8,754 bases of DNA from Candidatus Wukongarchaeum yapensis (GTDB taxonomy: Archaea > Asgardarchaeota > Wukongarchaeia > Wukongarchaeales > Wukongarchaeaceae): positions 1 to 8,754 of the forward strand of contig JAEOSI010000082.1 in the NCBI GenBank assembly GCA_016840425.1, written 5' to 3'. Below the pieces are notes generated by a model. That model was not told where the DNA came from, did not search any database, and saw nothing but the letters and a program-made list of their open reading frames with translations. The position numbers and the translations under genes are program-made. Shown in pieces: positions 1 to 5,697 of this stretch (within the stretch, counting starts at the first letter, position 1; each line of letters begins with the position of its first letter).

Positions 1-460
1 GGTTTGTCAAAAACTGCTGGGAAAAAGAAGTTTCAGAAATCGTCATAGGAGATATAACCCACATAAGAGAGAACAGTAGAAAGAAAATGAAAGGCAGAAA
101 AGCTAATGCGATGATAAACAACTTCTGGTCTTTTAAATACATCTACGAACGGCTTAGAGTAACAGCAGAAAATCACGGAATAAACACGAGGAAAAAGGAT
201 GAAAAATACACGTCTAAAACCTGTTCTCTCTGCGGAAAAATGCACAGAAACGGTAGAAAACACAGGGGACTATACATCTGTAAAACGCATGGAGTAACGG
301 TGAACGCAGACGTGAACGGTGTAGCGAACATAGCTAACCCGATATTCCCGAAGCCCTACTGGTGGGATAGGGATAACTGGCTGGTGGCACAGCCATCGGT
401 TGTAAAAGTTAAAACAACAACCGTAGAACCTCCAACCCTTTAGGGTAGAGAGTATGTCAG
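1..460 (+). mobile_element. IS200/IS605-family (IS1341-like) element, right-hand part with right end at about 460
   Basis: tnpB is followed by a typical right end: guide tetranucleotide GAAC (426-429), imperfect hairpin ctc-ca-accct-tt-agggt-a-gag (430-450), then AGTATGTCAG ending in TCAG (457-460). The left end and any tnpA lie outside the window. Confidence 0.85.
3..443 (+). CDS. tnpB: TnpB RNA-guided endonuclease (IS200/IS605 family), 5'-truncated by the window edge
   Basis: The frame is open from base 3 (FVKNCWEKEVSEIVIGDITHIRENSRKKM...), so ATG87 is internal. Motifs: RuvC-II region IVIGDI (G codon 48-50), WSF helix, DEKYTSKTC, zinc finger CSLC (222-233)...CKTH (279-290), RuvC-III NADVNGVANI (D codon 309-311). 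Confidence 0.93.
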   Translation, partial: FVKNCWEKEVSEIVIGDITHIRENSRKKMKGRKANAMINNFWSFKYIYERLRVTAENHGINTRKKDEKYTSKTCSLCGKMHRNGRKHRGLYICKTHGVTVNADVNGVANIANPIFPKPYWWDRDNWLVAQPSVVKVKTTTVEPPTL

Positions 461-480
461 TCAAGAAAGTAACCACATTG
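350..480 (+). ncRNA. Predicted omegaRNA/reRNA (3' scaffold plus guide) of TnpB; 5' boundary unknown and probably further upstream
   Basis: Consecutive stems: cccta/taggg (354-358/368-372), tggctg/cagcca (378-383/390-395), cggttgt/acaaccg (397-403/417-423) and the right-end hairpin 430-450. TnpB omegaRNAs are known to overlap the tnpB 3' end and take the guide from flanking DNA (here from 461: tcaagaaagtaaccacattg). Confidence 0.6.
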
Positions 481-1476
481 CAAACAGAAGTTCAAATCTC
501 TTGGTATAAATGCGCCGCATTGGGTGCAAAACTTTTTGAACCGTTCTTCCTCAGCACTTTCCAACATTGATAACCAGTAGATATCATCCATCGAGACACC
601 GCTTACTTCGAAACTCACAAATTTATCCCATTCAAACATTCTTTCTATAAGATCGTCTGCTTCTTCTTTGTTTTTTACAAAAAATCTCACACGTCCCCCT
701 AAACGCATGTAAGGATATCCAAAACCCTCGGAAATTTCTTCAGACATATATTTTTTTGGGACTGCTATTACATCATACTTATACGGGGATCTTTCAAAAA
801 TCTCCCCTACACTCCCTATTTTAAGAGTGGACCCGCCACGTTTCATTAATAACATCTTTGTACATAGCCTGTCCACGACTTCTGAATGGTGATCAACTAT
901 GATCAAAGTGATTCCTTTGACATAGTCTTCGAGATACTTAATTAGATGCTCTCTTCTGCGGAAGTCTAAAGTGGCAAAGACTTCGTCTAATAGTAGTATT
1001 TCAGGCTTTTTCATTAGTCCTATTGCTAATCTTGTCATGGCTTTTTGTCCTTCACTGAAAGTTTCCAGTCTCAAGTCTAGCATGGGCATAAGCCCCATAT
1101 ATTGCAAAAAATCGAAAGCCTGATCTATTTTGCTGTCTTGTATGTCCGCGAAAAATTTCAAGGTTTCTTTTAATGTCAATTTTTTCTGGAAATCAAGAGC
1201 AGGACTAACAAGCGATATCCTATTACGGACTTCTTCCGTATCCTTTATTATATCATATCCGTCAATTAAAGCGGTTCCTGAGTCTGGAAGATAAATTGTT
1301 GCAAGAATTTTTAAAAGAGTGGTTTTTCCAGATCCGTTAGGCCCAATTATGGCTAAAGATTCTTCTCGGTCGAGCTCGAAAGATACACCGTCAATAATCC
1401 TTATAGCTTCGCCCATGAAAAGGTTAGGTTTAAACTCTTTTACAATTTTATCCGCTACAACTATTTTATCTGCCAA
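457..1476 (-). CDS. ABC-2-type exporter ATP-binding subunit with C-terminal zinc ribbon
   Basis: Walker A GPNGSGKT (1321-1344), signature FSEGQ (1045-1059), Walker B ILLLDE, H-loop IIVDH; C-terminal FCTQCG-x8-FCLQCG (475-528). TTG start with TGGGGA upstream; adjacent to an ABC-2 permease. Confidence 0.93.
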   Translation of the reverse strand: MADKIVVADKIVKEFKPNLFMGEAIRIIDGVSFELDREESLAIIGPNGSGKTTLLKILATIYLPDSGTALIDGYDIIKDTEEVRNRISLVSPALDFQKKLTLKETLKFFADIQDSKIDQAFDFLQYMGLMPMLDLRLETFSEGQKAMTRLAIGLMKKPEILLLDEVFATLDFRRREHLIKYLEDYVKGITLIIVDHHSEVVDRLCTKMLLMKRGGSTLKIGSVGEIFERSPYKYDVIAVPKKYMSEEISEGFGYPYMRLGGRVRFFVKNKEEADDLIERMFEWDKFVSFEVSGVSMDDIYWLSMLESAEEERFKKFCTQCGAFIPRDLNFCLQCGYFLD

Positions 1477-2408: not shown

Positions 2409-3404
2409 TTATTTTTCCTTTTTTGCAGTAAAAGCGTACCATGGTTTTTCGTAGAATTTTACTTGTTTAAATCCTGAATTTACGAGGGTTGCATTGAATT
2501 TTTCTTTGTCGGGATAACTTTTGAATTCTGCGATTACATGGTTTATCCATTCGTCATAAGCTTCTCCTGTGAAAAAGGTCGTTCCTGCAAATACTCCTTC
2601 TGGTTTAAGGATGTTTTCCACCTGTTCTGTAATATTTTTTAAAGAGGGGGAGTCTGGAAAATATTGGAGGCCGTCAAAGATGAAAACGTAATCATAATCG
2701 TTTCTGGCGGCATATTGGCTTATATTTTCAAGGTCTTTTATTACAGTAATAGAAGCTTCTTTTATGTTATAAATATCTACAACATAGTCTGCGGCTTTTT
2801 TAAATTCTTGGTTGAAGCACATTCCTTCTATCTCGAAAACTCTTCCATCTGTTATATCAAGAACGGTTTTTATACCGTACCCTGTTTCTTGTCCGATGAT
2901 ACAGACATATGTTTCTTTATTTTTCTTAAGATTAGCCTTTTCCATAACATATTCTCGTCTTATTTCGTCAAGAGTTGAACCGGCTATCGCATCATAAAGC
3001 CATAATTCCTTTTGCATAGGTTCTCGTTCAGTCTCATTTTTTATATAAGGAACAAAAACTTGATTCAACCTTTGATAACGTAAAATTTGAGGATATTTAC
3101 GTATTTCTTCAAGTAAAGGGGGGGAAAGCTGCGATATCTCTTTTCTTTTTTCTTCTGTATGTGTAGTGGTCGAAAAAAGGTCACCTTGTTTTTCTAAAAC
3201 CCCTTGGTTTGCTAAAAACGAAAGCCATTTCTCTAAAGTTTCATTTTTAACAAATCTTTTTTCCGAAGATATTTCAGTCATGGACTTTTGAGAAGCCAAA
3301 AGAGTAAATAATTTCTCTTCTTCAGCATTTTTCGTAGCAATTCTTGTGAGTTCGCTCAAAACCTTTTCTTCACCTATTATTAATTCTTCCTCTTTTTTCC
3401 CCAA
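2409..3404 (-). CDS. N-terminal winged-helix + class I SAM-methyltransferase-fold protein with degenerate SAM motifs
   Basis: N-terminal LFTLLASQKSMTEIS...LEKWLSFLANQGVLEKQGDLF looks like a wHTH. C-terminal VCIIGQETGYG (motif I-like, 2880-2906), IEGMCFN (motif II-like), YDYVFIFDGLQYFPD, ILKPEGVF and LVNSGFKQV follow the Rossmann methyltransferase pattern. TTG start with GGAGGAG at 3414-3420. Confidence 0.7.
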   Translation of the reverse strand: MGKKEEELIIGEEKVLSELTRIATKNAEEEKLFTLLASQKSMTEISSEKRFVKNETLEKWLSFLANQGVLEKQGDLFSTTTHTEEKRKEISQLSPPLLEEIRKYPQILRYQRLNQVFVPYIKNETEREPMQKELWLYDAIAGSTLDEIRREYVMEKANLKKNKETYVCIIGQETGYGIKTVLDITDGRVFEIEGMCFNQEFKKAADYVVDIYNIKEASITVIKDLENISQYAARNDYDYVFIFDGLQYFPDSPSLKNITEQVENILKPEGVFAGTTFFTGEAYDEWINHVIAEFKSYPDKEKFNATLVNSGFKQVKFYEKPWYAFTAKKEK

Positions 3405-3462
3405 AGCTTTTTACTCCTCCTTTTATCATAAACAAGTTTTCGTTTTTTCTTCTTTCTTTTTT

Positions 3463-4623
3463 TTATTGTACTATTGAAAGAAGACTTATGAGATTGCGGC
3501 TTTTAAGAAGTAGAAGATAATCTACGAGTCTGCCTATGTTAACGCCTGCTTTTTTGCTTATCTGATATATGGTTTCTTTTCCAGTCATTTCCTTGTACAA
3601 TGGTATCAAATCGCTGAAAAATTCTACCTCTATCGGTGTTTCTATTCCCTCTTTATTCTCATTTTTGGTGAGTGTAGAGGGAAGTAAAAGCTTCGAATAC
3701 AAAACTATTTCAATTAATTCTTTTCTTGTCATGTTTCTAACCGTTAAATCTTCATTACTTTCTAAGTATTTTATAAGTTCCATTACCAGTTCGGGGTCTG
3801 CATAGATCTTTTTTTCTTCTAAAACGTCCATAAGACTTCTTAACCATTCTTCAATAGCCTCATTTAAAACTGTTTTAGAAAATACGACTAGAACGGCTTT
3901 TCTGCCGCTTGAAGAGATCACGTAGAGATTTTGATCCTTCCATGTGGTTAAATTAACTCTTTTCACTCCCTCTTTCATCATCTCTTCAGTCATTTTCGCT
4001 ATTTTCACAGGCTCTATTTTAACCCCTTCTATGAAGTTTGGCACCAGCCGTGTATCAACATTATTCCTTTCAAAATCTATAAGAACTAAACCATGCAAAT
4101 TTTGGAATTCATCATGAGTCTTTACTATCTTTTCCCCTGGCACTAAAGTATACTCGCGTATCTTCCCTTCCCTTTCATACATGACAAAGGTGCGACCGGT
4201 CTCTTTAAATGCATCTTCAAACGCTCTAGGCATCCTTTTTGGTTCCCCTCGAGAACGAACTATTGATGCTTTAGCGATCCTTTCTAACTCTTCTGTCAAC
4301 GCATTTTCTTTACATATAAATAATAGTAAACTGGTTGTAATGGCACCATCTTTCTCTTTATCAAAGCGTGATGCAACCACTCTCTCATTCCCGATCTTTA
4401 AGATATCTATAGGCGTGTGGCTTAACCCTGTATATATCTCAATTAGTCGTGATTGATTTTGTTCAAACTCTGTTATTAAATAGGAGTCTTTAATTACTTT
4501 AAAAAGAAAGGCTATAGGTCCTTCTACAATGTCGAAATTTATGAGGCAAATCGATTTTACACCAAGATCTCGCAGCTTCGGGACAATCTTTTGGGGGAGT
4601 ATTAGATCCTTCAAATAAGCCAA
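3463..4623 (-). CDS. Longin/uDENN-like domain protein with a probable second longin/roadblock-like domain and C-terminal winged helix (NPRL2-like architecture)
   Basis: SICLINFDIVEGPIAF (FDIVEGP at 4516-4536) matches the F-[DH]-x3-G-P first-strand motif of uDENN/longin domains. A second alpha/beta block starts LHGLVLIDF; the C-terminal LYKEMTGKETIYQISKKAGVNIGRLVDYLLLLKSRNLI looks like a wHTH. Start placed at TTG 4623 (GGGAGG at 4631-4636, 7 nt spacing) rather than GTG 4644; 386 aa. Confidence 0.65.
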   Translation of the reverse strand: MAYLKDLILPQKIVPKLRDLGVKSICLINFDIVEGPIAFLFKVIKDSYLITEFEQNQSRLIEIYTGLSHTPIDILKIGNERVVASRFDKEKDGAITTSLLLFICKENALTEELERIAKASIVRSRGEPKRMPRAFEDAFKETGRTFVMYEREGKIREYTLVPGEKIVKTHDEFQNLHGLVLIDFERNNVDTRLVPNFIEGVKIEPVKIAKMTEEMMKEGVKRVNLTTWKDQNLYVISSSGRKAVLVVFSKTVLNEAIEEWLRSLMDVLEEKKIYADPELVMELIKYLESNEDLTVRNMTRKELIEIVLYSKLLLPSTLTKNENKEGIETPIEVEFFSDLIPLYKEMTGKETIYQISKKAGVNIGRLVDYLLLLKSRNLISLLSIVQ

Positions 4624-4644
4624 ATTAGTGCCTCCCTTTAACAC

Positions 4645-4893
4645 CAGTAATTCCCTGCTTTTTGTTCATGTTTTACTTATTCCTAAATATAATTCTCTTT
4701 CTTTAACTTTAATTTTTCGCTTTCCTTTTTTGCGGAAATCTCTCCTATTTAAATTAAATTTCTGCTTTACCATAATAGTATTAAGAAACACTCTCTAAAG
4801 AGAATATAGATAAAAAAATGAGAATAAGCTTAAAAAAGAAAAAACCATACTGTTTAAAAAATTATTTTCATACTATATAACGGGGGAAAATAT
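4645..4893. promoter_or_regulatory. AT-rich divergent promoter region
   Basis: Non-coding region between divergent genes. TATA-like TTTAAAAA at 4853-4860 (+) and purine-rich BRE + TTATATTT around 4684-4700 (-). Exact boxes cannot be fixed by eye. Confidence 0.45.
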
Positions 4894-5697
4894 TTGTCAG
4901 AATTGTTAAGCGTTCGAGAAGAAGAAGAAAGACAAAAATTTGAAAAATTCGTAATTAACGAAATTAAAGAGATAGAATCTTTTCTTATTAAACAAATAAA
5001 ACTATTATCTGAGGGGGAAATTAGAAGGATTTCTTCCTTAACCGGATGCAATCTTGAAGCAAGCCGTGTAGTTGCAATTTTGGAACAAAATTGGCAAATA
5101 GACCCAGATCTTGTTTGCGATGAACTTCAAACAGAACATGTAAGATTACGCCAAATAGGAGAGGAAGTTCCTTCCATAGAATCATATTTACTACAATTCT
5201 CGGTTAATGAGGGTGCATGGATTAAATTTTTTTACGTAAATTTTCCAGAACTTTTAAATGAAAAAATTAAAAATCTTAAACGTTTAGAAGAAGGAATTTT
5301 TGGAACAGTAAAAGAAGCAGAACCAGACGATGCAGTTTACTATATAGTGGAGCTTTACATTCTTCTTAAAACACTTATTGAAGTCGTTATAGAAACTTGG
5401 GTAAAAACCCATATCAAATCTTTTCCTTATGAAGCATCTATCAGAATAGTGGGAGGTCTAAGAAATAAAAGATATGCTGAGGGAGCCTTTGACTTAGATG
5501 AAATACGGAAACCACTTATCAAAAAATTCAATTTTTTAAGATCGATAATAGAAAATTTACAAAAATCGACTCATGTCGTTAAAAGTCTTGAAATTCTTTC
5601 CAGTATAATGGGAGAGTTAACTTCAGAAAAAGATACAAATGACCTATCACTGAAAACATTATCTTGCATGATCTTAGAAGTAGCCATGGAAAAATAA
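4894..5697 (+). CDS. Hypothetical, predominantly alpha-helical acidic protein (267 aa)
   Basis: Long ORF with E/K/I/L-rich composition like its neighbours; TTG start with GGGGG at 4882-4886. No motif recognised. Confidence 0.8.
   Translation: MSELLSVREEEERQKFEKFVINEIKEIESFLIKQIKLLSEGEIRRISSLTGCNLEASRVVAILEQNWQIDPDLVCDELQTEHVRLRQIGEEVPSIESYLLQFSVNEGAWIKFFYVNFPELLNEKIKNLKRLEEGIFGTVKEAEPDDAVYYIVELYILLKTLIEVVIETWVKTHIKSFPYEASIRIVGGLRNKRYAEGAFDLDEIRKPLIKKFNFLRSIIENLQKSTHVVKSLEILSSIMGELTSEKDTNDLSLKTLSCMILEVAMEK

Follow-up and report, generated by a model that had tools for sequence, protein, structure and literature searches.

In the rearranged TnpB nucleases, the alternative catalytic glutamate (Ealt) was defined by Yoon et al. 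as a Glu lying six residues before the first CxxC motif of the zinc finger (PMC10711439). This rearrangement arose in several TnpB branches, and the zinc finger itself has been mutated or lost in several branches of the family (PMC10691335). Altae-Tran et al. (2023) described a RuvX-like arrangement of the active site for the E-to-G clade RIIr-5 (PMC10691335). Activity of Ealt enzymes has been reported (PMC10530073; PMC10691335): Jiang et al. (2023) found that the Ealt enzymes TvTnpB and ApmFNuc cleave DNA and that an ApmFNuc mutant in the alternative Glu is dead (PMC10530073). In the solved structure of ApmFanzor2, the catalytic triad comprises D324, E467, and D501, the Glu being displaced by 50 residues (PMC11832414). 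The combination of Gly at the canonical position with a downstream Glu is the largest group of rearranged TnpBs catalogued and has already been validated biochemically and structurally. Several further systems provide reference points for the locus described here. IS608 inserts 3' of the tetranucleotide TTAC, which stays in the left flank, and has GAAT as its right guide (GR) and TCAA as its right cleavage site (CR) (PMC5934647). The sotRNAs are 3' transcripts of haloarchaeal IS1341-type tnpB genes (PMC4615843). The pro-Fanzors are recognized by a signature consisting of DPG at RuvC-I, Ealt, and an IS607 serine recombinase, which Yoon et al. found in cyanobacteria only (PMC10711439).

The window analyzed here, a stretch of 8,754 nucleotides, comprises bases 1-8754 of contig C63 of an Asgard archaeal genome. 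We interpret its first 460 bases as the right-hand third of a single copy of an IS608-like IS200/IS605 element, which is multicopy and encodes a TnpB of the known rearranged class; the copy was broken by the assembly, and we assign this reading a probability of about 0.85. Since the contig break fell within the repeat, the window retains no more of tnpB than its final 146 codons. The features recognized are listed in Table 1.

Table 1. Coordinates of the features recognized in the window
Feature	Position	Strand	Remarks
3' part of tnpB	1..443	+	frame 3-443; C-terminal 146 aa and TAG stop at 441-443
Gly at the canonical RuvC-II Glu position, end of strand beta-4	48..50	+	G16 in IVIGDI
Alternative catalytic Glu (Ealt), predicted	201..203	+	E67 in DEKYTS, six residues ahead of the first CxxC
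Zinc finger CxxC...CxxH	222..290	+	CSLC...CKTH; C74 (222-224), C77 (231-233), C93 (279-281), H96 (288-290)
RuvC-III Asp	309..311	+	D103 in NADVNG (NADVN motif)
Omega-RNA (reRNA) 3' scaffold, predicted	340..460	+	overlaps the last ~34 codons of tnpB
Omega-RNA helix 1	379-383/390-394	+	invariant loop GUGGCA
Omega-RNA helix 2	397-403/417-423	+	
Right guide tetranucleotide GR (GAAC)	426..429	+	5' of the foot of the terminal hairpin
Omega-RNA terminal hairpin	430-438/443-450	+	right-end imperfect palindrome, predicted to be bound by TnpA
Right cleavage site CR (TCAG)	457..460	+	element ends with base 460
Omega-RNA guide, predicted	461..480	+	length assumed to be ~16-20 nt by analogy with ISDra2/TnpB; read from the flank
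ABC-transporter ATPase gene	457..1476	-	stop codon is the complement of 457-459

The tnpB fragment and its rearranged catalytic site

Translation of bases 3 to 440 of the forward strand yields 146 residues without a stop. No other long frame is found at the left edge, and this one is open at its 5' end because the window begins at base 1 of the contig, where the assembly was cut. The fragment matches the Pfam family PF07282 (53 bits) and, over the C-terminal part, the NCBIfam model NF040570 (guided_TnpB); a full-length sister copy (P0001) scores 137.6 bits against NF040570 (cut-off, 100), 63 bits against PF01385, and 50.6 bits against PF07282. A sequence-only reading of this DNA had proposed that Gly replaces the canonical RuvC-II Glu and that a Glu located 51 residues downstream occupies a position where Pro is usual. 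Both statements hold at the exact codons: in HMMER alignments to solved structures, on which this homology assignment rests, the Gly is matched to the catalytic Glu in MEDL of AsCas12f and the downstream Glu to the Pro of DPQYTS, the spacing from G16 to E67 being 51 residues. Its further observations of an intact RuvC-III Asp and of a His as the fourth zinc ligand are likewise correct. The window reads E-KYTSKT-CSLC, an exact fit to the six-residue ExxxxxxCxxC spacing of Ealt, and the sole mismatch to the full Ealt expression is the His in place of the fourth Cys. The proposed membership in the rearranged RuvC-II class (variously Ealt, TnpB2, or RIIr) is thereby upheld.

We recovered 3,279 representative relatives by an exhaustive HMMER search and counted the residues at the catalytic positions in 73 full-length relatives showing 28-54% identity. 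The RuvC-I Asp is kept in all 73 and the RuvC-III Asp in 71; Gly occupies the canonical RuvC-II position in 67, and the downstream Glu is present in 69. The exceptions covary, in that three proteins in which the canonical site is acidic (P0051, FIENL; P0080, ALEDQ; P0007, YVDDP) have Pro, Arg, or Ala instead of the downstream Glu. As the pattern is kept across the 73 relatives, it is not a product of chance, and the alignment points to a clade-wide, conserved, and compensated trait. The fourth zinc ligand is more variable, being Cys in 42 and His in 5 of the 73 relatives. Among the copies of the element, it is His in the window and on contigs C270, C117, and C263, reads as His from the DNA of C7 and L011, and is replaced by Gln in the copy on C5. 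Judged from these sequences, the CCCH finger is a real but minor lineage variant, the consequence of which is uncertain.

An AlphaFold2 model of a full-length sister copy, built on 71 relatives (pLDDT, 91.4; pTM, 0.88), aligns with solved structures over ~345 residues and displays the WED-REC-RuvC-ZnF fold, with VIA Z scores of 22.3 to ISDra2 TnpB (PDB code 8h1j; 341 residues; rmsd, 3.6), 24.9 to AsCas12f, ~22 to ISFba1 TnpB, and 21.0 to ApmFanzor2 (PDB code 9b0l; 355 residues aligned). In the model, Gly285 ends the strand from 279 to 286 (beta-4 of the RNase H fold), Glu336 directly follows the strand from 330 to 335 (beta-5), and Asp372 opens the helix from 371 to 380, an arrangement that would be RuvX-like, as in RIIr-5. 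The RuvC-II Glu would thus have moved from the end of beta-4, where Gly now stands, to a point just after beta-5 and six residues before the zinc finger, and it and the Asp residues of RuvC-I (D193 in full-length copies) and RuvC-III may form a D-E-D metal-binding triad like that of ApmFanzor2. In the full-length protein, the predicted triad is D193/E336/D372, with a Glu shift of 51 residues. The structural alignment places residues 1-386 of the model on residues 129-517 of the 9b0l chain, with a constant offset of about +131, and on the basis of the spacing, the secondary structure, and these alignment ranges, the predicted triad residues probably map in order onto those of ApmFanzor2. Neither loss of the RuvC-I Asp nor an upstream frameshift, both of which the sequence-only reading had raised as potential objections, is seen in the sister copies on C5, C117, and C2, in which the motif is intact (AYADLG or AYVDLG).

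Copies, ends, and target of the element

The genome (2.16 Mb in 277 contigs) contains many near-identical pieces of the element, mostly at contig ends, and we estimate that this Hodarchaeota-like metagenome-assembled genome (MAG) carries about 8-12 copies, with about 12 right ends. Full-length copies are found on C5 (415 aa; 92% identity to the window fragment) and C117 (417 aa), 5' fragments on C2, C268, and C70, and 3' fragments on C270, C60, and C172. There are also decayed copies, one on C263, which is 5'-truncated inside the contig and has an in-frame stop, and a frameshifted one on C135. A 58%-identical cousin is located on C235. Across the two full-length sub-families, the overall dN/dS is 0.18, a sign of purifying selection. 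At least five further, distant TnpB homologues with 24-35% identity to the family are present in the genome (C61, C97, C172, C177, and C275).

The 5' fragment closest to the window copy is that on C2, with 98.7% identity over a 229-nt overlap. We rejected C2 as the certain 5' partner of the window copy, given the 3 mismatches in these 229 nt and a left flank that is unrelated to the syntenic contig C60. A genome of the same genus (G001) matches the flank of the window copy from base 461 on with 87% identity and lacks the element. C60 is syntenic with the sequence to the left of this empty site and stops before any left end, and thus the 5' part of the window copy, about two-thirds of it, is unassembled. 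By the same synteny, C60 and C63 are neighbors, and C60 itself starts (1-124) with the right end of another copy. Two insertion sequence (IS) copies therefore appear to flank a segment of ~2.1 kb between C60 and C63 (1-460), which in G001 seems to hold a tRNA-like gene; this could be a composite arrangement.

The transposase was found on C70 (7637-7990; PF01797, 139 bits) as a 137-aa ORF that encodes a Y1 HUH TnpA with the HVH and Tyr motifs and ends 2 nt before the tnpB ATG. A tnpA remnant is present on C117, and no tnpA is found in the window-type copies. In five copies, drawn from two sub-families, the left end directly follows TTAC, with flanks that are otherwise unrelated, and in sub-family B the left guide/cleavage pair is AAAG/TTAC. 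Imperfect hairpins of the CCCTTTAGGG type occur at both ends of the element. At the right end, the copies are alike up to ...GTATGTCAG (base 460 of the window), 17 nt past the stop codon, and then diverge. Here, the 12 elements with a TCAG end have GAAC as their guide and the 2 with a TCAA end (L012 and L031) have GAAT, a covariation that guide/cleavage pairing of the IS608 type would predict. In the empty site of G001 (...ACATTAT/TCAAGAAAG...), the flanks are joined directly, with TTAT instead of TTAC. Taken at the sequence level, these features mark a standard IS608-like IS200/IS605 transposon, with TTAC as the probable target-adjacent motif (TAM).

By analogy with ISDra2, the Y1 TnpA would excise the single-stranded element and insert it 3' of TTAC, and the TnpB-omega-RNA complex would cut TTAC-flanked empty donor sites, such that the element is restored by homologous repair. 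This homing function of TnpB and the length of its guide are both what we infer from that analogy.

The insertion abuts the ABC-transporter ATPase gene on the opposite strand, for which the right end of the IS now supplies the TGA stop and the third base of the last sense codon. The gene ends in CTT GAA TAA at the empty site of G001 (L049:2340-2360) versus CTT GAC TGA in the window; the stop in G001 overlaps the TTAT/TTAC target, and the insertion altered only the last residue (E to D). Further along the window, Pfam yields no match at E <= 0.001 for three ORFs in 2409-5697, two on the minus strand (331 and 393 aa) and one on the plus strand (267 aa). Within the right end, the window copy has A447 where the copies on C270, C5, C117, C60, and C172 have G, resulting in a C-A mismatch in the terminal hairpin, which would serve TnpA recognition and the omega-RNA alike.

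The predicted omega-RNA

The 3' end of tnpB and the 17 nt past its stop would encode the scaffold of an omega-RNA, the guide of which would be supplied by the DNA beyond base 460, where the flank differs between all copies. In an alignment of 14 elements from five Asgard and other archaeal lineages (A5), the consensus fold comprises three helices, with compensatory changes in 9 of the 17 pairs. Paired cells amount to 90% versus 33-55% in slid controls, and the covariation score is 0.51 versus at most 0.17 in these controls; none of 500 shuffles reaches 0.51. Synonymous divergence between the two full-length sub-families falls from a dS of 0.46 to 0.23-0.29 over the omega-RNA codons, and the 64-nt stretch at 342-405 retains ~80-83% DNA identity in relatives with 45-48% protein identity. 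The DNA identity of this stretch (L023, L025, L026, L029, and L040) lies far above what the protein identity would lead one to expect. The most conserved part of the RNA, the hairpin GGCUG-GUGGCA-CAGCC, encodes the C-terminal tail of TnpB, which has low pLDDT values; the last ~33 residues are of low confidence in the model, which fits a tail whose sequence may be dictated largely by the RNA.

Searches of Rfam recovered sot0042 (RF02656) at 340-451 (25.8 bits; E = 7e-5; gathering threshold, 88) and HgcC (RF00062) at 380-473 (13.5 bits; gathering threshold, 50). Both matches have the expected location and strand and are below their thresholds; hence, the predicted RNA resembles these families and is a member of neither by the Rfam criterion.

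Activity, origin, and comparison with known systems

Two alternatives to an intact, active element split by the assembly must be weighed. The window copy might be a decaying, nonfunctional remnant, either a solo right end or a 5'-truncated pseudogene, given that such remnants exist in this genome (C263 and C135), that its terminal hairpin has the C-A mismatch at A447, and that the contig expected to carry its left flank (C60) ends without a left end. We consider this unlikely, as all 146 codons are open, the catalytic and zinc-binding residues are intact, its overlap with the intact 5' fragment on C2 is nearly identical, and it starts exactly at a contig end, like six other copies. Copies breaking at contig ends are typical of repeat collapse. 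A still less probable reading takes the Gly as the mark of a TnpB that has lost catalysis and been exapted for RNA-guided DNA binding or regulation, the downstream Glu being incidental. The canonical RuvC-II Glu is indeed missing, and many inactivated, exapted TnpBs were described by Altae-Tran et al. (PMC10691335). However, the downstream Glu is retained in nearly all relatives and is gone precisely where the canonical position has regained an acidic residue, both catalytic Asp residues are near-invariant, and the gene lies in a mobile, multicopy element that has transposon ends and a TnpA, unlike the immobilized exapted forms. Moreover, characterized Ealt enzymes do cleave, and their alternative-Glu mutant is dead (PMC10530073). 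We therefore very much doubt that the enzyme is dead and retain the reading of a split copy of an intact mobile element. The low dN/dS, the intact triad of the full-length sister copies, the conserved omega-RNA, and the absence of the insertion from a genome of the same genus make it plausible that the TnpB of this family is active, with E67 as the residue that would act in catalysis.

The sequence-only reading had also supposed an Asgard host, which is correct (the closest relative, at 87%, is from a Candidatus Hodarchaeota MAG), and, from the host and the active site, a special relevance to the ancestry of Fanzors, which is not borne out. Relatives at 44-58% identity come from Borr-, Jord-, Heimdall-, and Prometheoarchaeota on the Asgard side and from Methanolliviera, Archaeoglobales, Nitrososphaeria, Bathyarchaeia, and Thermoprotei among other archaea, and the clade is thus pan-archaeal, spanning Asgard archaea, TACK, and Euryarchaeota. 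The RuvC-I motif of the element is DLG; among the 73 relatives, it is DLG in 48, DIG in 10, DVG in 6, and DPG in 2, and none of the 73 matches the pro-Fanzor expression. The associated transposase (C70, with the remnant on C117) is a Y1 HUH enzyme, not an IS607 recombinase, the N-terminal extension is absent from the TnpB of the element, and the host is archaeal. In favor of a lineage specifically ancestral or sister to the eukaryotic Fanzors, one can adduce the Ealt layout that it has in common with them, the Asgard host, the profile match to ApmFanzor2 (E = 4e-27 in the PDB search, where 9b0l ranks 14th), the fold similarity (Z of 21), and P0033, an uncharacterized relative that joins DPG to Ealt. 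Against this, canonical TnpB and Cas12f rank above Fanzor2 by sequence as well as by structure, the score of Fanzor1 is marginal (E = 1.5e-4), Ealt is of multiple origin among TnpB branches (PMC10691335), and the clade occurs in TACK and Euryarchaeota as much as in Asgard archaea. The DLG motif, the Y1 transposase, and this pan-archaeal spread disfavor Asgard Ealt TnpBs as Fanzor ancestors; these sequences make any specific link of the clade to Fanzor ancestry unlikely, and a direct ancestral or sister position of the Asgard lineage is highly improbable.

We give no better odds to the idea that the pan-archaeal, Y1-associated Ealt clade, and not the cyanobacterial IS607 pro-Fanzors, was the source of Fanzors through inheritance or transfer from an Asgard ancestor. 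If that were so, rare members such as P0033 would represent intermediates. This metagenomic protein (L053:842-2200; 452 aa; 38% identity) has DPG at RuvC-I, Gly at RuvC-II, and the alternative Glu, a combination that was reported by Yoon et al. for cyanobacterial pro-Fanzors only (PMC10711439), and there is no transposase gene on its 2.8-kb contig.

In our preferred reading of an assembly-split copy, the locus matters little beyond annotation and illustrates a known class well; the element in the window sheds little light on where eukaryotic Fanzors came from. What it contributes is a well-documented Asgard example with a complete anatomy, comprising the TTAC target, IS608-type pairing, a covarying omega-RNA, and presence/absence polymorphism. 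For tests of a compact archaeal TnpB, the family offers a starting point.

Among known systems, ApmFanzor2 (mimivirus L79; PDB code 9b0l; PMC11832414) has the same D-E-D layout with a shifted Glu, the spacings being 143/34 in that protein versus 143/36 in the window family, whereas the Fanzor2 features of DPG, an N-terminal extension bearing a nuclear localization signal (NLS), IS607-type ancestry, and a eukaryote-virus host are missing here. The predicted RNA is like the sotRNAs in that these are sense transcripts overlapping the 3' end of an archaeal tnpB, the omega-RNA here being predicted from the sequence, and in sharing a GGCUGGU.GGCACAGCC hairpin and a terminal CCCUUUAGGG hairpin; it shares the ...GUCAG end with HgcC and differs from both in the middle part of the scaffold. 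The closest counterparts of the protein by published description, not by a named branch, are the Ealt/TnpB2/RIIr enzymes, such as Thermoplasma volcanium TvTnpB (PMC10530073; PMC10691335). These have the same Gly at the canonical RuvC-II position, the same compensating Glu ~50 residues on and immediately ahead of the zinc finger, the same NADxN RuvC-III motif in a protein of about 400 aa, and the same archaeal IS200/IS605 context with a Y1 TnpA and a right-end omega-RNA. However, TvTnpB-type sequences are only distantly related to the window TnpB, their fourth zinc ligand is Cys in contrast to His, and the TAM reported for TvTnpB is NTGAC as opposed to the apparent TTAC target of the window element. 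For the transposon as a whole, the best counterpart is IS608 of Helicobacter pylori (PMC5934647). The TnpB of IS608 retains the canonical RuvC-II Glu and its host is bacterial, neither of which applies to the window family, and most copies of the latter lack tnpA and are nonautonomous, unlike IS608. Nevertheless, both insert 3' of TTAC without duplication, have subterminal imperfect hairpins at both ends, and have the gene order tnpA(Y1)-tnpB, and the GAAT/TCAA right pair of IS608 is matched in the window family by its compensated version, GAAC/TCAG, with AAAG/TTAC on the left in sub-family B.
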